Positions 15,908-34,725 of a DNA stretch of 64,000 bases are shown here, piece by piece (the first letter of the stretch is position 1; each line of letters starts with the position of its first letter). The position numbers and the translations under genes are program-made. Under the pieces are notes generated by a model. That model had not been told where the DNA came from and searched no databases. It saw only the letters and a list, made by a program, of their open reading frames with translations. Origin of the DNA: a virus; the IMG/VR virus record IMGVR_UViG_3300044695_006284, positions 34,134 through 98,133 of that record; one strand, given 5' to 3'.

Positions 15908-16242
15908 ATTTAGCCGCTTTAGAAGGACAAGTTTTTCTTCTGGGTCACTGGAAGAATTACGAGGAATTAGAAGAAAATTTATCAATGCCAGAATTGGTTC
16001 AAACCATAACAGCGATAAATGAAAAAGAGCATAACCAAAGAAAATTTGCAGCGTCACTAAAAGGAATACAATTAGATGATGGTGCAGAAGAAAAAGAAAA
16101 AGGTTCTACCTTTGAAGATATCCAAAGAAGAGCACTTGGAATAAATGCATCAGCAGATGATGTTGTTGGTTTACAAGGGCCCTTTGCAGCGAAAGCTGGA
16201 TTTGGAATTGGCGCAGGGTTAGGATACTCTAGGAGTAATTAG
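15871..16242 (+). CDS. Tail assembly chaperone gpT portion (gpGT fusion of about 222 aa via -1 frameshift)
   Basis: Protein-like frame PNSGSGTGWSELDLAALEGQVFLLGHWKNY... begins well upstream of ATG 15985. Confidence 0.75.
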   Translation, partial: PNSGSGTGWSELDLAALEGQVFLLGHWKNYEELEENLSMPELVQTITAINEKEHNQRKFAASLKGIQLDDGAEEKEKGSTFEDIQRRALGINASADDVVGLQGPFAAKAGFGIGAGLGYSRSN

Positions 16243-19200
16243 TGGCTGACGAACAAATTGTAACCAGTATAGTCGCCAAAGCCGACTTATCTAGCCTTGT
16301 GTCTGAAGTACACAGGGCTAGTTCTAGTCTCCAACAATTACAAAGAGAACTTCTTGCATCGAATAGAGCAATATCTGCTTCAACAAAATTAGCAAATAAC
16401 TTATTTAGAGATACACTAACTGGAAGCGGACAGTTTTCTAGTCACTTTGTAAACCTTAATTCGGATGTAGATAAGTTTGGTAAAAACCTAGACTCTGGAA
16501 GATTAAAGCTTAAGAACTATTTCCAGACATTTAGAGAGCATGCTACAACTCAAAAGGGAATGATAAGGGAGCTTGCCAAAGAGCAGGTAATGCTTCAAAA
16601 CTCAGTGCTACAACCTTTAGGTAGAAATGCTCAAGGCCTAATGCAGTACAACGTTATGATTCCAAGAGGTTTGGATGCCGTAAAAAATAGCGCACAACTA
16701 GCTCGCATGGAACTTCAGATAATGAATCGTGCACTATCTGAAGGAGCAGGATCTTTAATTAACTGGGGTAAAAATACTCAGTGGGCAGGTCGTCAGCTTA
16801 CAGTTGGACTTACAGTTCCATTAACAATGTTTGGTGCTGCAGCAGGAAAAGCATTTAGAGAAGCAGATCAAGAGCTTGTAAGACTTACAAAGGTTTACGG
16901 TGGACTAGCTGCAACTTCTGCAGCAGACTTAAAAGCAATTAGAGAAGAAGTTGTGCAAACAGCAAAATCTTTATCTCAAACAATGGGAGCTTCTTTTAAA
17001 GATACAATTGCGCTAGGTGCTGATATTGCGGCAACTGGAAAGATGGGCAACGAACTTTTAGGTTCTATAGAAGAAACAACCAGACTTGCAATCCTTGGAG
17101 AAGTAGATAGACAAGATGCAATGAAAGCTACTCTTTCAATTCAAACAGCTTTTAAGCAAAACACACAGCAACTTACAGAATCAATTAACTTTCTTAACGC
17201 AGTTGAAAACCAGACATCTACAACACTTAACGATTTAGTAGAAGCAATTCCAAAAGCTGGTCCAGTTATACAGCAACTCGGAGGCAGCATAGAAGACTTA
17301 GCTCTTTATATGACTGCAATGAGAGAAGGTGGAATTAATGCATCTGAAGGTGCAAACGCATTAAAGTCAGGTCTAGCTTCTTTAATTAATCCAACAAAAC
17401 AAACAGTCGGTATAATGTCAGATTTTGGCATAGATGTAATGGGAATGGTTGCAAAAAATACTGGTGATACAACTGGAATGTTGCTAGATTTGCAAAAAGC
17501 TTTAAACACTTTAGATCCTCTAAGTAAAGCTAGAGCACTTGAGCAAATGTTTGGTAAGTTCCAGTTTGCAAGAATGAGCGCACTCCTAAACAACCTTGGA
17601 AAAGAAGGAAGCCAGACGCTTCAGGTTATGGATTTAATGAAGGCAAGTACCTCAGATTTGGCGGGAATTGCAGAGCGAGAATTAGGAATGATTACAGAGT
17701 CTGCATCTGGTAAGTATAGAAGAGCTATGGAGTCTTTAAAAGCACAGCTTGCAGATGTAGGAGATGAGTTTCTTGGGGTTGCAACTAAACTTATAAATGC
17801 TGCGTCAAAGATTTTAGAATTCTTCACTAATTTGCCATCACCGATTAAAAAAGCTCTTACTTTTATGGCAGGATTTACAGCATTAGTTGGCCCACTAATT
17901 ATGTTAACTGGTGTACTTGCCAACTTCTTTGGTTATATAACAAAGGGAATAGTCCAGCTCAGATCTTTCTTTATGAAAGCAAATGGATGGAAGATGCTTA
18001 CTCCAGAAATTATTGCTGCTCAAAAAGCAGCAGAAATGGTTGAGAATGCATTTTATTCAGATGCCGCTGCAGCTCAAGTTCTTCATAATGCATTACAAAA
18101 ACTTGTTTTAGATTATCAAAACCTTCAAGCAGCATCAATGAAGAACGCAGTTCCAGTAAACGCAGGAGTCTCTACAGTTGCTGGAAATACAATTGTTGCT
18201 CCTGCTCATGGAAGAAGAGTTGTAGATCCTGATGATCCATACGTTGGAGATCCTAATACTAGAGCAATGTCTCACATTAGACCGAGAGATCCAAATAATC
18301 CAGCCACCTTGTTTGGTGGTGTGCCAGGAGCTATACCAGTAAACAGGGGAATATCTAGAACTCCTCAAATTTATATGCATGATAGACTTCCAAATGTTGA
18401 AGGCCTAACAAGTGTAAAGGGAATATCTACAGGAATTGTTGCACCAGAGGCCGCTAAGTTTCATGCGCTCATGGCCACACTTGGAATGCAAACAGAACAG
18501 GAAATTGCAGCACTAAAGAAAACTATTGCAATGGGTGGAACAGTAAGTAGAGAGCTTTTAGATACATTCGACGACATTCTTCCAATAACTCAAAGATTTG
18601 CAGATAGCGCAGCAACTCAATCTGCACTAATTGTTCAGCAAATGAGAAATGCAGAAATAACTGTTGATCAGGCAAAGGCAAGAATACTTGCGCTTAATGC
18701 ACAAATAGAAGCAGACATGGGATCAGCAGTAAGTATGTATGCTGCTGGACGAGGAAGAACAATTGATTTAACAAGAGCTCCAATGATGGATCAACCAGTT
18801 GTTGATGCTAATGGACAGTTTACACTTAGAGATTTGTATAAGAAAAAGACAAATGCTGCCGTCATGGAAGAGTTTGGAAGAGTCCGTGGTGTAAGAACAT
18901 TTGGCGCACCTTACAGTATTCAAACAACAAGAATGCCTAAATTTAATATAGGTGGAGAGGTTGAATCATTTGGTCCAAACAAAACAGTGGTTTCAGGACC
19001 ATCTTCAGTAAACTATGATGATAGATTGGGAAGTGTTCCACTAGGTGGATATGTTTTGAACCAGCAAGCTGCAATGGATCCAGCAAATGCCCCATTAGTT
19101 GCAATGGCTCCAAGCACATATTTAAATGACGGTGGAAATATTACAGCAGCTCTTACTCCACGGGAAGTAGTTTTTGGTCCTCAAATTCAAAGAATGCCTG

Positions 19201-22200
19201 AGCTATATGCAGCAGTAGATGCTGCAAATAGTGGATATAGTTTTGGCGGGCAGATCATGAGGGGCACATATGGATATGGAAGAGACAGCGTTCTATCAAT
19301 ATGGGCAAAACTAGTTAACTCTAAAGATTATCCAACTGTAATTAAAGCAGCAACAGTTGCTTCTGATGCTGCCATATTATCACAGCTTACTGGCATGGAT
19401 ATTAAAGATGCCACAAAAAGAGTTTCTTCAGATTATGATGAAGCAATAGAGTATGCTAAAAAAGCAGCAAATCAAAATGGAACAAGGAAAACAGACGAGT
19501 TTGTAAAAGCAAGAACAGCTCAGCTTATTAGATTAAGCAAAGAGTTTCCAGGTGCAAATTTAATTTTAGATGAATATTCAAGTAAAAATAAGTACAATCA
19601 AAAGGCAAAAGCATCTCGTATGAAAGCTATATCTCCTGAGACATACGCAGGAACAATGAAAGCTGTAATTAATGATTTAATAAAAGATGGAGTTTTAACT
19701 CAACGCCAAGCAAATAAAGTTTTTGGAATTTTAGGAGACGCAACAGATTTTTACGATCCAATTTCTAAATCTCACACTATAACTGCAAAAAGAACTGCTT
19801 CAATATTTAATGCAGGGGAACTTCAGGACCTACTTGTTGAAGGAGGAATGTCAAAAGCCGAAGCAGCAAAATTTGCCGATGTTACTGGGGTTAGATCAAA
19901 TAATTTTGTTGGTCAATCTACTGGGCTTGCAAAATCATTTAACTCGATGGGCAACTGGTTACAGCGACGTACAGATGGTACTTTTATAGATGAAGTTTCA
20001 CCATTTCAAGACGAAGCAAAGAGCAATTTTATATCAGGAATTAAAAAACTTAAAGATAAGTTGGGAATTAAAGGACCCGCAACAATGGAGGAAATTATTA
20101 GACAGCTGACCCTGCAGAGAATAAAATCTGCATCGGGATTTAACTCTAAAATGATTACAACAGTTGCTGGAAGGTTGCGCCACATCTCGTTTGCAAAACC
20201 AGCACTAGGCCCGCTTGCTGGATCATTTAATAAAGGCGGTATGATTCCAGGCGGATCTATATCTAGAGGTAGATCAAATTATGGAAATATTGCTCCTGCC
20301 TTAAGATTGCTTGCACCAGATAAACAATTAAAGATTTTAGCAAAGGCAAGAGAATTAAGCTCAAGAGGATCGCTAGGTAAATTTGCTGATATGCCAGTAA
20401 CTGAATATGGGCATCAAATTTCTGCAAGCACAGGAATGAGTTATCCAGTACCTGGTGTATCTGGATTGTATAAGGTCGGTAACAAAAAAGTTTTTGTTAA
20501 AGGTGTTCCTAATGAATTAACTGCCGTCCATGAGCCAATTGGCACTCAAATTACAAGAGATCTTTTTGGAATACATTCTCCAGTACAAACAGCTAGAACA
20601 GTTGCAAATCCAGTAGATCCATCAAAAAAAACCAAGCTCCTTGCTTTAGAATCAGATTATGATCCAAGATTTGCAAACACTAATGTGCCATGGGATGAAG
20701 ATACAATTCTTAGACAGCTTGCTAATTCTCTTCTTTTAAACAACAAAGATTTATCTAGAGCAAACGTGTATGGTAATTTTAATCCAGATGTCGGACAAGC
20801 TGGAGTATTACCTAAAGCATCTGGTAATACACGTCTGGCAACAGCTGATGAAATGAACTCTATGGAAAAGCAAGCACTGATTAATCTACTTGCCGTTAAA
20901 GGTGGAGCAAGAAAAGATTTTGCACGTGACACTGCCCCAATAATTGCTAAGATGAGCCCGAAAAAATATGGTCGACGAATGAAGAAAATATTAGAAGATG
21001 CTCGTCCAAAGTTAGTAAAAATAATAAATGGTTTACCTGAAGATCTTAGACCTCCTTATCAAGCAATGCTTAAAAGATTGGATGATGGTATAGAGGTTGA
21101 TTGGAGTCAATATCATGCCGTGCATGCTAATCCAAAGTATCTTAATGCTGGAGGACCAGTTGGTGGCGGTCCAATCAGACGAGGAAGATATGCTTACGGT
21201 CCTAAAAAAGATGGATCACGCAGACCAGGTAACCCAGCAAAAGCAGCTGCTTGGGATGCAAAGCAACGTGAGCAAAGAGAAAGAGACTTGGCTGCAGAAA
21301 GATCTAGAGCGGCATCTCATCAGATTCAAGGTCAGCAAGCACTTACAACAGGACTTGGCAGAGAGGCAGCAAGAACTGGAACAACAAGTTTTTACAATCC
21401 AGGCTCATTAATATTTCCTCAAATTGGGGCTCAGATAAGAGCATCGTTATCTTATATGTCAAATTCAGTTATAAAAGGATCTGTTCGATTAAATCTTGAG
21501 TTATTAGCGGCAGCTAATAAAACTGCAAATGTTTATAATAGAGCGTCATCTATTGTAACAACTTTTGCAAATAAAGCGCAAGCTTCTATATCATCAATAG
21601 CAAACAGCGTAACAAACTTTGGAGCAAGTAAAATAAATGCAATTGTTAGAGCACAAAATGCATTTGCTGCTAATAATTATCCAGTAGGACAAGCACCAGC
21701 ACAAGGATTCTTTGGTCCAGGAATGATTGGAAGGTATAAAGACCTTGGAGATGGAATACAGTCTAGAAAAGTTGGTGTATTAGGAGCAAGAAGAACAGAA
21801 TATCTAGTTGATGGTGTAACCATGAGTGCTAAGCAGGCACGACAAGCTGGAGTATCTATACCTCAAAGAGCAAACGGAATGAGCGTAGGTGCTCAAATGG
21901 GAATTGGTATGGCTGGATCAATGGGTGGAATGGCATTGATGGGCAAAGAAAAAGTAAATATTTTCGGTAAAGAAACTTCTGGAATGAATGCTGGAATGAT
22001 GTTAATGGGAGCAACTTCCATACTTCCAATGCTTCCATACGTTAAAGCACTTACAGCACTTAAATCTGGAGCATCTTCGGCTAAAGCTGCTATTATGGGA
22101 GTTACTGGTGCAGGGGCAAAGGCAGCACAAGTTGTTGCACAGATAGCAAGATTTGCAAAAGCATTTAGCCTTGTAGGAGTAGTTGCAACAGCAGCATTTG

Positions 22201-25200
22201 GTATATTTAAAATGTATCAAAACTATAAGGATGCTCAGCAAGATGCAACAATGGGTCTTTCTATGACCGCAAGAGCAGCAGAAGAAGCTGGAGTAAAATA
22301 TTTTAACCTTAAAGAAACCATGCAGGGTTATATTGATAAACAAAAGGTTGCTGCAGCAGCAGCAAAGTCTTCAGAATTTAATTCAATCGGAATGCCTGGT
22401 CTCCCTAGATCCATAGAAGATTTAAAGAAGGCTAAGGAAGAGGGCAAGGCTCTAAAGGATTTAATAGAATCATTAAATAGAGCAGATGGAAAGCAAGAAG
22501 CTCAAAGAATAATTAATAATCAAAAGGCGCAAATGGTTGCAGCTGGAATGAGCATTGAAGAAGCAAATAAAAAGATTTATGGAGCTTTAGCAAATAGCAA
22601 CAAGGCTTCCCAATCCTACCAGCTATTAGCAGACGTACAATTTGGATCAATTGTAGATAAAGCTTCCGCAGCATCATTTGCAGTAGGAAACTTGGTAAGT
22701 GTATTAAATAGCACAGACGCTTCAAGTACCCTTGTCGGAAGCGGATTCGAAGGACTAATAAATACATTTGATGAAGCAACAAAGAGCCTTGTTGGAACAA
22801 AAGATGCACTTGGAAATGCTATAGATGATTATGAAGCTTATAAGTTGGTTATGTCTAGTGCGGAAGAACAATTCCCTGGATTTAATGAAGAAATAGGTTC
22901 AGATGCGTATGATAAGTTAAAAGAATCTCAATCCCTATTAGCTGGAATTTCAAACGAGGCAGACAGCATAAAGAGTATATTAGCTAAATGGAAACTGTTT
23001 ACTTCTGGAATAAATCTAGATTTAAAAAACATAGACTCCACACTTGCAATAAAGTTAGCTGGTTTTAGTGAAGCAATTGCTACAGGAATTTCTGACTTAA
23101 CGGCTGCTGCAGATAATTCAACTACATATGGTGCAACAGGCGCAGCATTAAAAAAGATGCAGGGAATAATTTCTGCAAATTCTGCAGCATCTCAAAGAGC
23201 TGCTGCAGCCGAACAAAGATCTTCTCAAGAACAGCTAAAAATTATTTCTAAAAAAATTAAGCTAATCGAGGATGAAAAAAATGCAAAGCTTGATTCCTTA
23301 AGAGCAACTCAAGATGCATCAAATTATGCATTAGAGTTGCAAAAGCTTCAGATTCAATACGCAGATGCTGTTTCTCGTGGAGACATGGCTGCGGCAAATC
23401 AAGCAAAACTTGACATAGATCAGCTAACAATGAATAGACAATCAGACCTTGCTCAAAAAGCAATTGAAGATGCGGCAAAAAAAGCAAAGGAACCTTTAGA
23501 AAAACAAGCACAAGCAATTCAAGATAAGTCTGATAAAAAACAAATAGCTATGGCTAACAACCAGGATAATGCCGCACTTGCAGGTGAAATAACTGCAGCA
23601 ATTCAAAAATTACAGACAACATATAATGATCTTACATCCAGAGCAATTACCGCAACATTCCTTCCAGAAAAACAAAGAGTAGCTGAAGAAGCACAAATTC
23701 AATCAGAGCTGATAGCTTTTCTAAAAGAAATGCAAAAAGCTGGTACTGGATCCACCTTGCTTGCCAAAACAGTAAGAGAGTCTTTCCCAGGTTACTTTGA
23801 TAAAGATGGAAAGCCTTTATCACCTGGCACAACAACTGGTGGATCTCCAACAGGATTTGATAGCAAGGGCAAGCCAATATTCCCAAAGATTACAATACCA
23901 AACTTAGACTCACTAGCTCAGTTTGCTAAAGACCTTAAGTCTGTAGTTACATTAGCCGAAGACATCACTGGTGGAATGAATATAAAAGAGCTTGCAAAAT
24001 CTATTGCTACAAGTCTTCACTACTATAAAACAAGAGAAAATAATATCCCAGGTTCAGGAACTGCAACTTCAATTAAGGCCGCAAACATTGTTGCAAAGGA
24101 TGGAAATGCAGCAGCGAACCAAGCAATGAGAATGACAGACTCTCAAACAAAAAAGTTTACTTTACCAAGTGATCCTACTAGAAAATATTCAGTATTTACA
24201 TATAATTCAAAAACGTATGCTGTAGATCCAATTAGCGGCACAGTCTACAATTTTGATTCAAGCTTAGACATACTAGGGGCTCCCGTTAAAGATAGAAAAA
24301 AGATGGCCACTGGAGGATCAGTTAAACATTTTAATCCAGGTGGAAATGTAAGCGGTCCAGGAACTTCAACATCTGACTCAATTCCTGCAATGCTTTCTGA
24401 CGGTGAGTGGGTAATTAAAGCAGATTCAGTTAAGAAAGCTGAAAAAGAATTTGGGCCTTCATTCTTTAGTGATTTAAATGCTGGCAGATTTGCAAATGGC
24501 GGCAAGGTAAGCAAGATGGGCACAGCAGACTCAATGATTAAAGCAGCAGAGTCCATGATAGGGTATCAGGAAGGAAGAGGCAACGATACTATATTTGGAA
24601 AGTTTGCACAAAAAGCTTATGATCTGCAAACCAGATATATCGCATGGTGCGGTGCTTTTATAAACTGGGCAGCAAAAAAATCTGGAGTAGATTTAGCAAG
24701 TATGATTTGGACTCCTGGAGGAGCTCAATCATTTATGAAGAGCGGCAAGTGGACAACTATGAATCCACGTCGGGGAGATTTAGCCTTTATGGATTTCCCA
24801 GGAGACGGCGTAAATAGAATTTCTCACGTTGGTCTTGTAAGCAATGTTTTAGGAAAGAATTCAGTTTCAACTATAGAAGGAAATACATCAGGATCTGGAA
24901 GCCAAAGAAGCGGCGGAGCCGTGCTTAGAAAAGTAAGACAATACAATTTAAAGAATGCTCCAGTTGTAGGATTTGGAAGACCTTCATATAAGCCAGTAGA
25001 TAACATTAAATATGGATACGGCACACAAGAATACTACAGCGCAGATGATGCTAAATCAGATTATGAAAATGAAAGATACACAGTAAATAGAGGAGACACA
25101 TTATCTAGTATTGCTTCAAAGTACGGAATTACTGTTAACAAATTAATGGAAATGAATCCTCAGCTAAAGGATCCAAAGTATATGGGTGGGTCAAGAATTT

Positions 25201-27578
25201 TTGCAGGTACAAAGGTAAGCATAAAGAAGTTTGCAGAAGGTGGAAAAGTCGTAAACTCATTAACTAATTCTGGAAATTGGATTAGTGGGCCTATAACAGT
25301 ACCAAGACAAAAGAAGCCAGGGGTTCCATATTCAAGATCTGGAAAACCAATAGGAAACCCTTTTGGTCAATATTGGGGAGAGCTTTCTAGATTTATTGGC
25401 CCACGTAGCCCAGGAATGGATATTTGGGGCGGAACAGAAATACCAGGGCTTAAGTTTACTGGAAAGGTTCCACAGCATTCAGACTACATGCATCAGATGC
25501 TTGAGCAGCCACGTAAGCCGTTTGCAAGCCCAGGAATGGGTATAGATAGAGATCCAATGCGATATGCAGGCTCTGGCGCCTCTATGGGCGGCATTGGCAA
25601 TGGAGCATACGGACTTGGCCCATTAATGTTCCATGCTGGCGGTCCAGTAGGGCACACTCATTCAAGCGCACCTCATGACCTAGGTATGAGATCGTTTGGT
25701 TTAAGCAGAAAGCAAACCGAAGCTGAGAAGATGAGACTTCAGCTTACTCCACTTAAGTCTGAAAACCAAAAACAAAAAGCAAGAAAGAACAAAAATCTTT
25801 CATATTATGAATCTAAAATAGATGATCCTATAAATAACTACTCAGAGGGATTTGGTAAAGTATTCACTCGTTCCCCATTCGGACTTCTTGCGCCACTTAC
25901 ATCATTAGCTTCAGATCTTTTGGGTGTTTACTTTCAAGGTAAAACTCCAACATTTGCAAAAGATGGAATTGGAAAAGCTTTAAATCCAACATCTTATGAA
26001 TCAGATGTTTCTAGCTTGATGAAAGCTATGATTCATCCTTTCGGAGAAATTGCAAAGGGAAGCGCAACTAAAGGTGATTGGGCTAATGCAGGATTAAATT
26101 TTGTTCCAGGAGTGGGTGCTCTAAAAGGAGTTAATACACTTCGTGCACGTTCTGCAGCATATAATTTAATAAATAAAGCAACTCTAGATTTACCAACAGA
26201 AGCTAGAGTTAGCCTTATTCCAAACGCTACACTTAGAAGTAATTTTGTGGCTCTTAAAAAAGCAGATAAAGTTGACACACCAGAGTTTGCAAAAGCAAGA
26301 TATGAACTTGCGCTATCTGATGCAATAAGAGCAGCAAGGAGAAATAATTTTACTTCACTACCAGATTTAAAAAATACCACTGCCGCTAATCTTATTGAAG
26401 AAAATAAGAATTTGCCAAAAATTATAGAAGAGTCTATTAAGGTAAACGGAAAAGATTATATTTTTAGGTTTGAAAAAGCAGATATTTTACCTACTGATGC
26501 AAAATACATAGACAAATTTATTGAAGGTTTAAAAGAAGGAAGAGTAACTTCAGAAGGCTTTGGCGCAGGTGGAATGCACCAAGCAGAGATTCTAGATCCT
26601 GTTACTAAAAAACAAATGTCCTGGATAAACTATGATCCAGTTACTGGACACATTAGCTATCGTGGAACACATCCAGAATATAGATGGCTTCATCTTTCAG
26701 AAGCTTTATACAATAAAGCAGTTTCAATTACTAGAATAAAACATTCACCTACTTTAACTGACATGGGAAGGCCATCAGCTCTTCGTATCGGTGGGTTTAT
26801 GGCAGATGATCCTTACTATGGTGCAACTTCAATTACTGGCATAAAGAGCTATCTAGATACACTAATGAAACTTAAAAAGTCTAAGAAAGCAAAGCCATCA
26901 ACTGGAGAGCCAAGGAAAGGTATCGGATCTTGGGAAAATAATCATATAACTGAAACCGTATCCTCTGCACCAGCAACTCCTCGCTACCCCATTGACGAAT
27001 TTAATGATCGAAACAGCATAATTGGCTGGCAGTTTGATAGAACTGCTGACCTTGATTCAGCTCTAAGTGCAGCACTTCGCCCAGAAACTATACGGTGGTT
27101 TGGAAGCACATACCGTACATCAGCAAACTTCCCATATGGTCCAGGCGGATATATAGAGCCAGCAGCTTTACCAGAGCTACAAAGAATTATTGAAGCAGAA
27201 AAACTTGCTAGACAGTCGGAGGCTAGCCGTGGCAGTTGGGGTATCATCCGCGGCGACGGATGGGCAAATGGCGGGCTTGTACAAAACTTCTCAAATTCTT
27301 CATTAAAAAATCTAGGTTTACCAATGTTTGAAAATGGAATCAATATGGTTCCTGCAAATATGTTGGCAATGCTTCATAAAGATGAAGCTGTTATTCCAGC
27401 TAACATGAATCCATTTAATCCAAATGCTACGGCGGCAGCATCAGGATCAGTATATAATATTAATGTAGAATTAAATGGAACAAACGTGACAGCAAAAGAT
27501 GTTGCACTAGAAATACGTAATGAAATGAGATTAAAAGAAATGGCAGCTGGAGTAAATAGAATGGTAGGCAAGCAATGA
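16242..27578 (+). CDS. Giant tape measure protein (3778 aa) with inserted kinase-like, CHAP, LysM and GNAT-like domains
   Basis: TP901-type core (FREADQELVRLTKVYG...GINASEGANALKSGL), hydrophobic segments, coiled coils, GPGTSTSDSIPAMLSDGE motif; follows the chaperones. Confidence 0.93.
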   Translation: MADEQIVTSIVAKADLSSLVSEVHRASSSLQQLQRELLASNRAISASTKLANNLFRDTLTGSGQFSSHFVNLNSDVDKFGKNLDSGRLKLKNYFQTFREHATTQKGMIRELAKEQVMLQNSVLQPLGRNAQGLMQYNVMIPRGLDAVKNSAQLARMELQIMNRALSEGAGSLINWGKNTQWAGRQLTVGLTVPLTMFGAAAGKAFREADQELVRLTKVYGGLAATSAADLKAIREEVVQTAKSLSQTMGASFKDTIALGADIAATGKMGNELLGSIEETTRLAILGEVDRQDAMKATLSIQTAFKQNTQQLTESINFLNAVENQTSTTLNDLVEAIPKAGPVIQQLGGSIEDLALYMTAMREGGINASEGANALKSGLASLINPTKQTVGIMSDFGIDVMGMVAKNTGDTTGMLLDLQKALNTLDPLSKARALEQMFGKFQFARMSALLNNLGKEGSQTLQVMDLMKASTSDLAGIAERELGMITESASGKYRRAMESLKAQLADVGDEFLGVATKLINAASKILEFFTNLPSPIKKALTFMAGFTALVGPLIMLTGVLANFFGYITKGIVQLRSFFMKANGWKMLTPEIIAAQKAAEMVENAFYSDAAAAQVLHNALQKLVLDYQNLQAASMKNAVPVNAGVSTVAGNTIVAPAHGRRVVDPDDPYVGDPNTRAMSHIRPRDPNNPATLFGGVPGAIPVNRGISRTPQIYMHDRLPNVEGLTSVKGISTGIVAPEAAKFHALMATLGMQTEQEIAALKKTIAMGGTVSRELLDTFDDILPITQRFADSAATQSALIVQQMRNAEITVDQAKARILALNAQIEADMGSAVSMYAAGRGRTIDLTRAPMMDQPVVDANGQFTLRDLYKKKTNAAVMEEFGRVRGVRTFGAPYSIQTTRMPKFNIGGEVESFGPNKTVVSGPSSVNYDDRLGSVPLGGYVLNQQAAMDPANAPLVAMAPSTYLNDGGNITAALTPREVVFGPQIQRMPELYAAVDAANSGYSFGGQIMRGTYGYGRDSVLSIWAKLVNSKDYPTVIKAATVASDAAILSQLTGMDIKDATKRVSSDYDEAIEYAKKAANQNGTRKTDEFVKARTAQLIRLSKEFPGANLILDEYSSKNKYNQKAKASRMKAISPETYAGTMKAVINDLIKDGVLTQRQANKVFGILGDATDFYDPISKSHTITAKRTASIFNAGELQDLLVEGGMSKAEAAKFADVTGVRSNNFVGQSTGLAKSFNSMGNWLQRRTDGTFIDEVSPFQDEAKSNFISGIKKLKDKLGIKGPATMEEIIRQLTLQRIKSASGFNSKMITTVAGRLRHISFAKPALGPLAGSFNKGGMIPGGSISRGRSNYGNIAPALRLLAPDKQLKILAKARELSSRGSLGKFADMPVTEYGHQISASTGMSYPVPGVSGLYKVGNKKVFVKGVPNELTAVHEPIGTQITRDLFGIHSPVQTARTVANPVDPSKKTKLLALESDYDPRFANTNVPWDEDTILRQLANSLLLNNKDLSRANVYGNFNPDVGQAGVLPKASGNTRLATADEMNSMEKQALINLLAVKGGARKDFARDTAPIIAKMSPKKYGRRMKKILEDARPKLVKIINGLPEDLRPPYQAMLKRLDDGIEVDWSQYHAVHANPKYLNAGGPVGGGPIRRGRYAYGPKKDGSRRPGNPAKAAAWDAKQREQRERDLAAERSRAASHQIQGQQALTTGLGREAARTGTTSFYNPGSLIFPQIGAQIRASLSYMSNSVIKGSVRLNLELLAAANKTANVYNRASSIVTTFANKAQASISSIANSVTNFGASKINAIVRAQNAFAANNYPVGQAPAQGFFGPGMIGRYKDLGDGIQSRKVGVLGARRTEYLVDGVTMSAKQARQAGVSIPQRANGMSVGAQMGIGMAGSMGGMALMGKEKVNIFGKETSGMNAGMMLMGATSILPMLPYVKALTALKSGASSAKAAIMGVTGAGAKAAQVVAQIARFAKAFSLVGVVATAAFGIFKMYQNYKDAQQDATMGLSMTARAAEEAGVKYFNLKETMQGYIDKQKVAAAAAKSSEFNSIGMPGLPRSIEDLKKAKEEGKALKDLIESLNRADGKQEAQRIINNQKAQMVAAGMSIEEANKKIYGALANSNKASQSYQLLADVQFGSIVDKASAASFAVGNLVSVLNSTDASSTLVGSGFEGLINTFDEATKSLVGTKDALGNAIDDYEAYKLVMSSAEEQFPGFNEEIGSDAYDKLKESQSLLAGISNEADSIKSILAKWKLFTSGINLDLKNIDSTLAIKLAGFSEAIATGISDLTAAADNSTTYGATGAALKKMQGIISANSAASQRAAAAEQRSSQEQLKIISKKIKLIEDEKNAKLDSLRATQDASNYALELQKLQIQYADAVSRGDMAAANQAKLDIDQLTMNRQSDLAQKAIEDAAKKAKEPLEKQAQAIQDKSDKKQIAMANNQDNAALAGEITAAIQKLQTTYNDLTSRAITATFLPEKQRVAEEAQIQSELIAFLKEMQKAGTGSTLLAKTVRESFPGYFDKDGKPLSPGTTTGGSPTGFDSKGKPIFPKITIPNLDSLAQFAKDLKSVVTLAEDITGGMNIKELAKSIATSLHYYKTRENNIPGSGTATSIKAANIVAKDGNAAANQAMRMTDSQTKKFTLPSDPTRKYSVFTYNSKTYAVDPISGTVYNFDSSLDILGAPVKDRKKMATGGSVKHFNPGGNVSGPGTSTSDSIPAMLSDGEWVIKADSVKKAEKEFGPSFFSDLNAGRFANGGKVSKMGTADSMIKAAESMIGYQEGRGNDTIFGKFAQKAYDLQTRYIAWCGAFINWAAKKSGVDLASMIWTPGGAQSFMKSGKWTTMNPRRGDLAFMDFPGDGVNRISHVGLVSNVLGKNSVSTIEGNTSGSGSQRSGGAVLRKVRQYNLKNAPVVGFGRPSYKPVDNIKYGYGTQEYYSADDAKSDYENERYTVNRGDTLSSIASKYGITVNKLMEMNPQLKDPKYMGGSRIFAGTKVSIKKFAEGGKVVNSLTNSGNWISGPITVPRQKKPGVPYSRSGKPIGNPFGQYWGELSRFIGPRSPGMDIWGGTEIPGLKFTGKVPQHSDYMHQMLEQPRKPFASPGMGIDRDPMRYAGSGASMGGIGNGAYGLGPLMFHAGGPVGHTHSSAPHDLGMRSFGLSRKQTEAEKMRLQLTPLKSENQKQKARKNKNLSYYESKIDDPINNYSEGFGKVFTRSPFGLLAPLTSLASDLLGVYFQGKTPTFAKDGIGKALNPTSYESDVSSLMKAMIHPFGEIAKGSATKGDWANAGLNFVPGVGALKGVNTLRARSAAYNLINKATLDLPTEARVSLIPNATLRSNFVALKKADKVDTPEFAKARYELALSDAIRAARRNNFTSLPDLKNTTAANLIEENKNLPKIIEESIKVNGKDYIFRFEKADILPTDAKYIDKFIEGLKEGRVTSEGFGAGGMHQAEILDPVTKKQMSWINYDPVTGHISYRGTHPEYRWLHLSEALYNKAVSITRIKHSPTLTDMGRPSALRIGGFMADDPYYGATSITGIKSYLDTLMKLKKSKKAKPSTGEPRKGIGSWENNHITETVSSAPATPRYPIDEFNDRNSIIGWQFDRTADLDSALSAALRPETIRWFGSTYRTSANFPYGPGGYIEPAALPELQRIIEAEKLARQSEASRGSWGIIRGDGWANGGLVQNFSNSSLKNLGLPMFENGINMVPANMLAMLHKDEAVIPANMNPFNPNATAAASGSVYNINVELNGTNVTAKDVALEIRNEMRLKEMAAGVNRMVGKQ
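20463..21140 (+). other. HipA/PI3K-like kinase-fold domain inside the tape measure protein
   Basis: GLYK...VFVK (beta3 Lys), HE (helix C Glu), LLNNKDLSRAN (catalytic loop), DVG (DFG equivalent). Confidence 0.55.
24535..25229 (+). other. CHAP peptidoglycan hydrolase plus LysM domain inside the tape measure protein
   Basis: AWCGAFINW, SHVGLV, TIEGNT, GFGRP; YTVNRGDTLSSIASKYGITVNKLMEMNP. Confidence 0.9.
26560..26800 (+). other. GNAT-like domain inside the tape measure protein
   Basis: HISYRGTHPEYRWLHLSEALY...IKHSPTLTDMG resembles a phage GNAT pattern; motif A is degenerate. Confidence 0.4.
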
Positions 27579-32640: not shown

Positions 32641-34725
32641 ATGGCTGGCAGATATGAAGATTTAGGAATTACTCAATCCAGAGATGGAGATTACTTTGAC
32701 ATTGTTGTTACAAATTTAGATATAAGTACAGAGTATAATCTTCAAGCAGCATGGGTGTATACAGACAAAACTTTAGGACTCAGTGAGTACTCAGACCGCT
32801 ATACATTTGTAACAGCTGGAGAGCAGCCATTAAATAAGCCAAGATTTTTGCAATCAGATTTAACTACACAATTAAATGCACTTATTGTAAATTGGTCTGG
32901 ATTAGATTATCTCGGATCTGCTTATCCAAAAAGCTTTGCACGAGTGGATGTTTTTGTAAAGGGTGGTACTTTTGGAAATGATTATGTTTTAGCAACAAGC
33001 TTTTTTAAAGCTGGCAAAAAAACAATTATTGCTCAATCAGGTTCATATTCTGTAAAGTTAAGAGCTGTGAGCAATCTTGGAACACCATCGGATTTTAGTG
33101 ATGAGTGGTCTGTAAATACATCTGACCCATCAGAAATTATTGAACCACCAACGCTTCCAATTGGTCTATCTGTATCCCCAGCACCGTTTGGAATCTCCGT
33201 AAATTGGGGAGGAGCATACCAAGCAAACGATCCTTTTTCTGGATTTAAAACAATTGAAGTTTATGCAACAACAAACGCTGGTCTTGGCGCTAGTACAACT
33301 ACAGCATTTGCAAGCTCAGCATTGGTGGCAAACCTAACAGTAACACAATCTTTAAACAGACAAAATGTTGGAATTGATAATCTTAAGCAAGCACTTGGTC
33401 TAGCCACATCAGAATTAGTTTATGCTGCTAACATTTATTTTTATTACATAGCGTATAATAAAAATAACGAGCCTTACAAAGTTTCAGGAGTTCCAACCTA
33501 CACACGGATTAGCGCAACACCACTGTCTCCAACTAAAGCTAATCTAATTGATTTAGAAAACGGAATAATATCAATTGAGAATCTTGTTGCTGGAAATGGA
33601 AAGTTTACTTCATGGCTAAGAGCAGGATCTGATACAGGCGGGGCTAGAATAGAGTTAAATGGTGGAAGCACATTCCCAGACGGCACAACTGGAAGATCTG
33701 TCTATGACGGGTTTACAGTTTATAATTCTGCCAACAGCCCAATATTTAGAGCAAGCACAACAAGCGGTACAGTTCTTTTTGGAGGTCTTGCTCCATCAGA
33801 TATCACAGATATACAATCAAAGGTTACAACTAAGACACAGGTTTTTAGGCAGGCAACAGTTCCAACATCCGTAGCGGTGGGAGACCTTTGGATAAACACA
33901 GAAGACAGTGCTATCGGAAGAAATACAATTTATATTGCCACCTCAGTTGGAGCAAATTCAATAACAGCTACTGGCTGGGTTGTTGCAAAAGATTTAGATA
34001 TCTCAAAAGCATTACTTCAATCTGGAGGGTTTGATTCAAATGGAAATGTAATTAGGGCTATTCAAATTCCAGTTCCAAATGGAACTTCAGCTGGATCAAT
34101 TTATTCTGTAAAAAGTTCATATGGCGCACCAAACCTTCCAGGTTGGTTTTTAGGCTGGAGCGGGCCTTCAGCAAATAGCGTTCCAGTTATGGACATAGGA
34201 AATGATAATGCTTATCTTAGATGGAACGGGTTAGAGCTGGAAGTAAAAGGAAAAATATCCGCAACAACTGGATATATTGGTGATCCTACTGATGGATGGT
34301 CGATTGGAGATATTAGCGGAACTGGCATATATGGAATAAGTTCTTATGATGGTAGCATGGAACTGTCAACTGGTTTTGGAGGACTTGCAATGTTCAGAGT
34401 TGGAAATAACTATTTAACTGCACTTAATGGTTATTTAAGTTTATCCGAATATGTTTCTGGAACATATAGAGATATTCTTACTACATCTGGTGTTGACAGT
34501 TTTGACGGAGGAAAGATATACTTGGGAGACTATATTGCAGGAGTCGGCGGAAGATCTGTGTATGTTAAAAAATCTGCACAAGTTGCTGGAGGTACAGAAA
34601 ATGCTAACTCTGGCGGACTAAGAAATATGTTTACAGCAACAACAACTCTCTACAATACAGTAGGTGCTGGATCTATTTATAGCGGAGCTCTCAACGGAGA
34701 TGTTCTTTTAGTCTATACGCCATAG
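32641..34725 (+). CDS. Fibronectin-III-containing tail protein
   Basis: YSVKLRAVSNLGTPSDFS, PTSVAVGDLWINT, YLRWNGLEL, ISATTGYIG. Confidence 0.7.
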   Translation: MAGRYEDLGITQSRDGDYFDIVVTNLDISTEYNLQAAWVYTDKTLGLSEYSDRYTFVTAGEQPLNKPRFLQSDLTTQLNALIVNWSGLDYLGSAYPKSFARVDVFVKGGTFGNDYVLATSFFKAGKKTIIAQSGSYSVKLRAVSNLGTPSDFSDEWSVNTSDPSEIIEPPTLPIGLSVSPAPFGISVNWGGAYQANDPFSGFKTIEVYATTNAGLGASTTTAFASSALVANLTVTQSLNRQNVGIDNLKQALGLATSELVYAANIYFYYIAYNKNNEPYKVSGVPTYTRISATPLSPTKANLIDLENGIISIENLVAGNGKFTSWLRAGSDTGGARIELNGGSTFPDGTTGRSVYDGFTVYNSANSPIFRASTTSGTVLFGGLAPSDITDIQSKVTTKTQVFRQATVPTSVAVGDLWINTEDSAIGRNTIYIATSVGANSITATGWVVAKDLDISKALLQSGGFDSNGNVIRAIQIPVPNGTSAGSIYSVKSSYGAPNLPGWFLGWSGPSANSVPVMDIGNDNAYLRWNGLELEVKGKISATTGYIGDPTDGWSIGDISGTGIYGISSYDGSMELSTGFGGLAMFRVGNNYLTALNGYLSLSEYVSGTYRDILTTSGVDSFDGGKIYLGDYIAGVGGRSVYVKKSAQVAGGTENANSGGLRNMFTATTTLYNTVGAGSIYSGALNGDVLLVYTP

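Follow-up and report, generated by a model that had tools for sequence, protein, structure and literature searches.

Wall hydrolases within phage tape measure proteins (TMPs), a single cut in each of the TMPs of phages T5 and lambda, one TMP fused to a polymerase, and polyvalent proteins with kinases, GNATs and hydrolases have all been described. Here we analyze a TMP gene located in a 64,000-nucleotide stretch of viral DNA (hereafter the window; positions 34,134 to 98,133 of IMGVR_UViG_3300044695_006284, a 98-kb IMG/VR virus record with a completeness rating of 78%). The gene occupies nucleotides 16242-27578 of the window on the plus strand and forms one open frame with a GTG start, encoding 3,778 amino acids (aa). 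An original prediction had described its product as a TMP in which GG motifs separate cargo domains and act as cleavage sites and/or recombination junctions. We put a probability of about 0.7 on a modular TMP in which conserved tape segments, exchangeable cassettes and an end piece meet at GG joints, with the joints as borders of exchange and the cargo carried by the tail. Our literature searches returned no description of joint-delimited cassette arrays in TMPs.

The T5 TMP, pb2, matures to pb2* and pb2C by a cut after R1127, and the resulting 92-aa enzymatic piece is retained in the tip (Linares et al. 2023, PMC10038345). The 42 residues that precede the cut form a strand, which docks in the hub once this has opened. 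Like the window TMP, pb2 contains hydrophobic channel segments followed by a glycine motif, a muralytic piece and an end piece, which in pb2 is docked as a trimer in the tip (PMC10038345). It has one joint and one 92-aa cargo, whereas the window TMP has ∼12 joints and at least five cassettes, some of them mid-protein. In lambda, the maturation of gpH to gpH* and gpHC takes ∼14 kDa off the glycine-rich C-terminal region, at an unmapped site and with an unknown catalyst (PMC12617516). GG motifs of the kind seen in the window TMP occur twice in this region, and the end piece binds the tip (PMC12617516). In gpH, by contrast with the window TMP, the motifs are followed by the end piece without intervening cargo, and the alignment between the two proteins is not significant.

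That an active enzyme can be delivered by a TMP has been proven experimentally for Thermus phage P23-45, whose 5,002-aa TMP gp96 is fused to a virion RNA polymerase that transcribes pre-early genes (PMC10770324); the authors propose that the polymerase remains attached to the pore (PMC10770324). Gp96 is comparable to the window TMP as a giant TMP with an enzyme, in its case one that acts in the host before phage gene expression. It differs in that its one enzyme is N-terminal and that neither a cassette array nor a junction motif nor exchange between relatives has been reported for it, and it shows no detectable relationship to the window family. Polyvalent proteins unite many unrelated catalytic domains in one virion-associated polypeptide, their repertoire includes kinases, GNATs, peptidases and wall hydrolases, and processing and recombinational variability have been proposed for them (Iyer et al. 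2017, PMC5512222). The window TMP likewise combines several unrelated catalytic domains (a kinase fold, CHAP and a GNAT-related domain). The carriers of polyvalent proteins are, however, mostly packaged in the head (MuF, DarB-type), no junction motif shared among them is described, and TMPs are mentioned 0 times in that study (PMC5512222). The TMPs of mycobacteriophage TM4, staphylococcal phiIPLA35 and SPbeta contain embedded muralytic domains that aid wall crossing (cited in PMC12617516) and are counterparts of the CHAP-LysM part of the window TMP; each of these TMPs has a single, fixed motif or domain, in contrast to a variable array of several cassettes with repeated joints.

The GG Motif Recurs Throughout a TP901-type Tape Measure Protein

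The 3,778-aa protein is a TP901-type TMP, as the original prediction had recognized in calling it a tape measure protein. It matches TMP core models above their curated cut-offs (PF10145, 97.8 bits with a cut-off of 33.2, 1e-27; TIGR01760, 99 bits with a cut-off of 28.8, 2.6e-28) and phrog_10030 with an E value of 1e-117, and several PHROG TMP families cover its first 650–860 residues.

The joint motif has the form aromatic-x-x-G-G-x-V/I, with GG...E-x-V, GG...RG..YG and GG-P-V-G-H-x-H as frequent extensions; of these, the His-rich GGPVGHxH occurs in the optional C-terminal array only. The pattern [FLYMW]xxGGx[VI] matches 13 times in the TMP (aa 901, 961, 999, 1329, 1334, 1634, 2688, 2697, 2750, 2997, 3130, 3632 and 3674, starting at nucleotides 18942, 19122, 19236, 20226, 20241, 21141, 24303, 24330, 24489, 25230, 25629, 27135 and 27261), compared with a chance expectation of 0.60 (standard deviation 0.76, maximum 4) in 2,000 shuffles of the protein. 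All 11 copies named in the original prediction are present with the positions and residues given there, as is the variant FENGINMV at nucleotide 27327 (aa 3696), and we find two further copies, MIPGGSI at 20241 and YGPGGYI at 27135. The three extended GG...RG..YG linkers that had been noted are also real (GGQIMRGTYGYG at aa 1002, GGMIPGGSISRGRSNYG at aa 1332 and GGPVGGGPIRRGRYAYG at aa 1637).

Conservation within the middle region of the TMP peaks at the joints, with 90–99% column conservation for aa 861-1010 and for the GG...YG linkers versus 30–60% for the first cassette (67 relatives were compared over aa 861-1015). Yet the motif-bearing stretches aa 880-1015, 1293-1404 and 1631-1650 have model confidence (pLDDT) values below 50 when the monomer is modeled. 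Because they are highly conserved and yet disordered in this model, the joints carry the signature of a short linear motif, either read by a partner or folding only within an assembly.

The motifs border the segments for which this had been proposed (an uncharacterized 330-aa segment and the kinase-like, CHAP-LysM, Gly/Pro-rich and GNAT-containing segments), as shown by Pfam matches and structure models. All segment coordinates that follow are on the plus strand. The first tape segment (nucleotides 16242-18821, aa 1-860) comprises the TP901-type core, with PF10145 at aa 239-438, and is 96–100% identical in close relatives. It is followed by a junction cluster (18822-19286, aa 861-1015) with four GG motifs (nucleotides 18942, 19035, 19122 and 19236) and two elements of the E-x-V type, which looks like the C-terminal end block of an ordinary TMP. 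Cassette 1 (19287-20225, aa 1016-1328), a mostly helical folded domain without family assignment, is hypervariable, and the junction behind it (20226-20297, aa 1329-1352; FNKGGMIPGGSISRGRSNYG) is nearly invariant. The kinase-like cassette (20298-21140, aa 1353-1633) has its folded core at approximately aa 1387-1630 and is linked by a further junction (21141-21215, aa 1634-1658; LNAGGPVGGGPIRRGRYAYG) to the second tape segment (21216-24302, aa 1659-2687). This segment, composed of Ala-rich helical, Met/Gly-rich and hydrophobic stretches, is collinear in nearly all relatives at ∼65–70% identity. Hydrophobic segments of membrane type are found at aa 537-567 and aa 1964-1992, and we therefore distinguish two tape/channel segments, with cassettes between and after them.

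A canonical TMP end block (24303-24509, aa 2688-2756) closes the core and consists of MATGGSV, FNPGGNV-GPG-SDSIPAMLSDGEWV and then R-FANGGKV. Behind it lie the CHAP-LysM cassette (24510-25229, aa 2757-2996; CHAP at aa 2800-2881, LysM at aa 2946-2994), the FAEGGKV junction with a Gly/Pro-rich cassette (25230-25628, aa 2997-3129; 18% Gly and 12% Pro, predicted to be disordered), and the FHAGGPV-GHTH junction with the GNAT-related cassette (25629-27260, aa 3130-3673; confident fold at aa 3296-3502, GNAT-like part at aa 3392-3511). The C-terminal end piece (27261-27575, aa 3674-3778) contains the WANGGLV junction and the variant joint FENGINMV...DEAVIP (nucleotide 27327). The last ∼90 residues of the TMP are nearly invariant, even where the adjoining cassette of a relative is only 36–39% identical, which would fit a tightly constrained contact with the tail tip.

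Cassettes Are Exchanged as Units at the Joints

Cassettes are swapped at the motifs. Our family set contains 120 relatives (2,095–4,576 aa) and the window TMP, 121 proteins in all, which were cut at the motif and the resulting pieces clustered. In BLASTP comparisons with the 120 relatives, the window TMP is collinear over aa 1-2756 and the alignments then break, 81 of them ending at aa 2754-2758 (the end of FANGGKV) and 17 at aa 3134-3137 (the end of FHAGGPV), and ∼50 restart at aa 3672-3681 (WANGGLV). Between aa 2650 and 3720, 43 of the 103 distinct alignment-end positions are located within 10 aa of a motif, where 16% would be expected, although these counts are not independent events, the proteins being related. 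The 121 proteins share a fixed core order followed by a combinatorial C-terminal array, giving 47 architectures from a shared pool of ∼40 cassette families. One family, cassette 7, has 12 different following partners, and the number of motifs increases with protein length (r = 0.78). In the commonest form among the relatives, of ∼2,800 aa, a FANGG-type motif is joined almost directly to the end piece.

We compared the DNA of the relative L023 (IMGVR_UViG_3300044641_000963) with the window. Identity is 96% over aa 1-1008, ending three residues past GGQIM. No DNA similarity is detectable over aa 1009-1331, where the proteins share ∼22% identity. The similarity resumes with 87% identity over aa 1332-1720, beginning at the GG of the next motif, falls to 71% over aa 1798-2563 and reaches 95% over aa 2687-3775, beginning at the first motif of the canonical block. 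The genes flanking the TMP gene are 82–91% identical in L023 and the window. Cassette 1 is replaced as a unit in L023, L020 and L016, with no DNA similarity in this region. L016 has only the Gly/Pro-rich cassette of the array in common with the window (89% DNA identity), the similarity stopping exactly at aa 3136, and its array is otherwise different. The mosaics in L023 and L016 thus indicate that whole cassettes have passed between diverged lineages, the joints marking the borders. In aligned homologues, then, cassettes have been gained, lost and swapped at the motifs, as the original prediction would have it; the pile-up of breakpoints there, the 47 architectures and the L023 mosaic all speak to this.

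More distant TMPs (28–57% identity) contain internal canonical blocks and GG-bounded segments of 250–330 aa. The relative L035 (L035:6815-13471), 28% identical in the kinase domain, contains the joint FN[DK]GGMIPDVQKFALGG twice, 249 residues apart, and this arrangement suggests a recent internal duplication of a cassette. A 3,160-aa distant relative (L057:9839-19318), from a contig of a metagenome-assembled genome (MAG) labeled Bifidobacterium (GC 42%), has three head-to-tail GG motifs (YANGGVIPGYRNGGIIKGYNTGGFV) and canonical blocks at aa 1531 (mid-protein) and aa 3059 (near the end).

Folds and Domain Content of the Cassettes

We calculated two AlphaFold models, covering aa 880-1650 (model 1, with a 20-sequence alignment) and aa 2997-3778 (model 2). 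Model 1 shows two confident domains, one mostly helical (aa 1019-1292) and one α/β (aa 1405-1629). Model 2 is confident solely at aa 3296-3502, with the Gly/Pro-rich stretch and the C-terminal 270 residues unfolded. The models, with their folded units and with the motifs in low-confidence linkers, agree with the earlier proposal that the segments fold as separate domains. Family and fold searches gave the following results: Pfam, run on eight separate TMP segments with E values up to 5, returned nothing besides CHAP and LysM, and on the two longest relatives PF10145 and CHAP only; NCBIfam added nothing for the joints; PDB sequence profile searches gave nothing significant; and Foldseek found no PDB match at E ≤0.001 for either structure model. 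Cassette 1 has a pLDDT of ∼80 over aa 1019-1292, and the leads returned for it by Atlas to LPD families, which are among the signature companions of polyvalent proteins (LPD39, 0.83; LPD38, 0.77), have scores that are frequently reached by chance.

In an exhaustive VIA-align search, the kinase cassette, with its bilobal fold, aligns over 190–216 residues with the atypical protein kinases CotH (5jda, Z 9.4), MavQ (7m7a, 9.1), CtkA (3akj, 8.8) and HipA (4pu3, 8.2), and kinase-fold proteins fill 48 of the 50 highest-ranking rows. Foldseek finds the same kinase families weakly (CtkA with a probability of 0.96; E values of 0.01–0.2). The residues corresponding to the catalytic Lys, the Glu, the D-x4-N loop and the metal-binding Asp (K1420, E1431, D1503, N1508 and D1516) do not vary among 20 sequences with identities as low as 28%. 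Neither Pfam nor PDB sequence searches, nor any specific kinase family model, match the cassette; because no family model matches it by sequence, we call it a kinase-fold domain only and not a member of CotH or HipA. We found no kinase inside a tape measure protein in the literature searched. In nearly every member of the family, the kinase-fold domain with its invariant residues sits between the two tape segments.

Both domains of the CHAP-LysM cassette exceed their Pfam cut-offs (CHAP, PF05257, 35.1 bits with a cut-off of 26; LysM, PF01476, 50.4 bits with a cut-off of 20.9), and endolysin PHROGs match as well. C2803 (nucleotides 24648-24650), at the position of the CHAP nucleophile, is the sole cysteine among the 3,778 residues, and the His of the SHVG motif is also present.

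The fold of the GNAT-related cassette is closest to HAT1 (Z 6.6) and NatD (6.3) in VIA-align, all values (6.6–5.1) lying below the caution line of 8 of this tool, and Foldseek pairs it with HAT1 (probability 1.00, E 7e-3). There is no direct Pfam match, and Atlas returned unnamed viral clusters only. A profile of the cassette (A5), searched against 1.8 billion proteins, reaches many proteins of 100–135 aa and giant multi-domain proteins with the Pfam families Acetyltransf_1, 7 and 10. The acetyl-CoA loop (R/Q-x-x-G-x-G/A) reads RGQGLA in L022, the canonical form, and RKLGIA in L013. Two of the A5 profile matches, P0134 (3,303 aa) and P0137 (2,387 aa), are distant relatives of the cassette with ∼6–10 tandem GNAT domains, with Acetyltransf_1 in 10 and 6 stretches, respectively. 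The domain calls of the original prediction hold, for the kinase-like cassette by fold (VIA-align Z 9.4–8.0), for CHAP and LysM by Pfam and, more tentatively, for the GNAT relationship by profile and fold.

The Joint in Ordinary Tape Measure Proteins

A tblastn search with aa 2688-2756 located the canonical block in 539 GenBank phage records at 615 places, almost always under annotated TMP genes. In the 940-aa TMP of Burkholderia phage vB_SBP33, the block is located 65 residues from the C-terminus. The TMP of Pseudomonas phage Nox contains FAGGGQV...SDSIPAWLSNNEVV, followed by 45 residues, R-HATGG and a 78-aa end piece, and in lambda gpH, FATGGF with GEFV is succeeded by YATGGYV. The window TMP shows the same succession of a GG element and an E-x-V element before an end piece at aa 2697-2730 plus 2750-2756 and again at aa 3674-3722. 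Compared by eye among T5, lambda, vB_SBP33 and Nox, the layouts suggest that ordinary TMPs have one or two joints directly before the end piece and that these have been multiplied in the window family. In the window TMP, the cargo array follows the second joint as an insertion, with additional joints separating the cassettes.

When we read the T5 gene, the pb2 cut fell between ...SFVPR and AEGGMMYPGVSYQMGEHGTEVVTP, two residues before the GG of an AEGG...GEHGTEVV element. In lambda gpH, a hypothetical cut at FATGG (aa 733-737) would yield a piece of ∼13 kDa. The joint is linked to the T5 or lambda element only via Burkholderia lambda-like TMPs (E 4e-10).

Genomic Setting and Relatives

The TMP gene overlaps both of its neighbors, its GTG start with the stop of a small upstream open reading frame and its stop with the ATG of the next gene. 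Upstream lie a tail tube protein gene (PF25681, weak; Ig-domain PHROG) and two small open reading frames, and downstream a 1,090-aa minor tail protein (phrog_10359), a tail protein and further tail genes. The database copy of the window TMP (P0002, 3,759 aa) begins 19 codons further on, at nucleotide 16299, than the GTG at 16242. Since most relatives use the start equivalent to 16242 (MADEQIV...), we prefer the longer form.

The source is an uncultured siphovirus-type phage with a genome of ∼115–125 kb. Among GenBank phages, megablast with the TMP gene gave no match, and the tblastn matches with aa 880-3778 were limited to CHAP/endolysin and the short TMP block. In a large protein collection, we located more than 120 relatives of 2,095–4,576 aa, encoded on contigs that reach 117 kb. 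Matches in genome collections are phage contigs binned into MAGs labeled Bacteroidia, Bifidobacterium, Aquiluna and Rhodobacteraceae. One Bacteroidia MAG has two contigs with a TMP relative each (L055 and L056; JBBALJ010000003.1 and JBBALJ010000006.1; 57% and 43% identical to the N-terminal 900 aa), probably two binned phages. Their GC content of 37%, like that of the window, is a weak hint of a Bacteroidia host.

Discussion

By analogy with the TMPs of T5, lambda and JBD30, the end piece of the window TMP would dock in the tail tip, with the protein loaded in the lumen, and at infection the TMP would leave the tail C-terminus first. CHAP-LysM would then meet the wall first, since the C-terminus leads. 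The hydrophobic tape segments would next form a channel, and targets in the host would be left to the remaining cassettes. Of these, the kinase-fold and GNAT-related ones may be active in the host, as the P23-45 gp96 enzyme is. Delivery ahead of phage gene expression, as put forward in the original prediction, would fit TMP biology and the gp96 precedent. The joints would represent a hand-over or processing element of the TMP. They might be cut proteolytically at several sites, a tentative proposal by analogy, or else provide hinges or strands for docking while the chain stays whole, and these two readings are not mutually exclusive.

A true polyprotein, in which one conserved activity, residing in a host protease, in a tail assembly factor or in the TMP itself, cuts each GG motif to give up to ∼8 polypeptides in the virion and a sequential release, can be entertained with some reserve. 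T5 pb2 is cut close to the GG of an AEGG...GE-x-x-E-V-V element and an enzymatic piece is released there, the loss of ∼14 kDa from lambda gpH is near the mass expected for cutting at FATGG, an Arg precedes the second motif in both the window TMP (R2749-FANGG) and Nox, and joints that are conserved yet disordered are what a recognition site should look like. However, the likeness to T5 and lambda stays at the level of the motif and is not statistically significant, Pfam reveals no protease candidate in the tail module, just two TMPs are known to be cleaved (PMC12617516), and cuts at the core joints would part the two tape segments, so that the ruler function could suffer unless assembly comes first. 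We set aside self-cleavage in cis by N-O shift chemistry, as no conserved Ser, Thr or Cys comes directly after the GG. That the GG joints are recognition sites of the very activity that processes pb2 and gpH, with a true polyprotein releasing a programmable series of separate enzymes (wall hydrolase, kinase, acetyltransferase and domains without assignment) into envelope and cytoplasm at the moment of infection and lineages re-arming themselves by cassette swaps, seems doubtful to us as an extension of the analogy. The chain may instead remain uncut, its joints being hinges or strands for in-register packing of three or six chains in the lumen, for chaperone binding or for docking in the tip like T5 pb2*, and its cassettes staying tethered to the channel. 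The conservation of the junction cluster at aa 861-1015 (90–99%) goes beyond the need of a simple cleavage site, the strand that docks in the T5 hub directly precedes the cut, the P23-45 polymerase is proposed to stay on the pore, and joints unfolded in the monomer model fit elements that fold only in an assembly. An uncut chain leaves unexplained, however, why a joint is needed at every cargo boundary and why the array has its own His-rich GGPVGHxH form, and we judge it rather unlikely.

Two other explanations concern the exchange and the cargo themselves. The coincidence of breakpoints with motifs could mean that the motif is a recombination signal in the DNA, with nucleotide repeats driving the shuffling. 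Our search for direct repeats in the TMP gene found none at the motifs: the 13 copies use different codons and have no common repeat of ≥14 nucleotides, conservation is at the protein level, and the swapped pieces are flanked by 60–100 nucleotides of conserved coding sequence, enough for ordinary homologous recombination between co-infecting relatives. A DNA-level signal is therefore rejected as scarcely credible, and from the recombination junction of the original prediction there remain the exchange borders at the motifs (L023, L016 and the alignment ends). Breakpoints would coincide with motifs not through recombination of the motif DNA itself but because a tail works only if the recombinant has retained its joints intact; exchange probably proceeds via the conserved flanks, with selection for intact joints. 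It is also improbable that the cassettes are no effectors but filler, length-setting modules or decayed remnants of captured genes that are inactive in the host. Most cassettes have no Pfam family, the Gly/Pro-rich one is disordered and the acetyl-CoA loop of the window GNAT copy is degenerate, all of which would favor this reading. The catalytic residues of the kinase are nevertheless invariant down to 28% identity, the only Cys of the protein is the CHAP nucleophile, and cassettes have been kept intact through many exchanges while 47 architectures persist, which indicates selection on content.

Several observations weigh against a modular TMP that delivers its cargo through processed joints. 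In BLASTP, the joints match T5 pb2 with an E value of 0.39 and lambda gpH with one of 14, neither of which is significant, leaving a likeness at motif level only, and the T5 cut site has an Arg instead of an aromatic residue at the first motif position. The relatedness of the proteins also limits the weight of the alignment-end counts. No conserved nucleophile follows the GG, so that simple self-cleavage chemistry is not evident, and Pfam finds no peptidase in six downstream tail genes and three upstream genes. The acetyl-CoA loop of the window GNAT copy reads RWLHLS. Folded domains of 250–500 aa in three or six copies would be a tight fit for the tail lumen, and cleavage, the location of the cassettes in the lumen and their delivery are events that we infer for the window phage from other TMPs.

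TMPs are commonly regarded as rulers that also form channels and have no more than one wall-degrading motif, whereas the window family appears to use the ruler as a modular carrier, in which a shared pool supplies at least 47 combinations of cargo and nearly every member has a kinase-fold domain whose catalytic residues are intact. The catalysis of TMP cuts was described as unknown in a 2025 study of lambda (PMC12617516); the joint motif would be a testable candidate for the unmapped cleavage site of lambda gpH and for the determinant of the T5 pb2 cut. The cassettes, mostly without a family, offer a well-defined set to be searched for new anti-host or envelope-active enzymes. If the cargo is delivered, these TMPs would constitute a second route of protein injection by phages beside the head-packaged ejection proteins, one whose content can be read from sequence.

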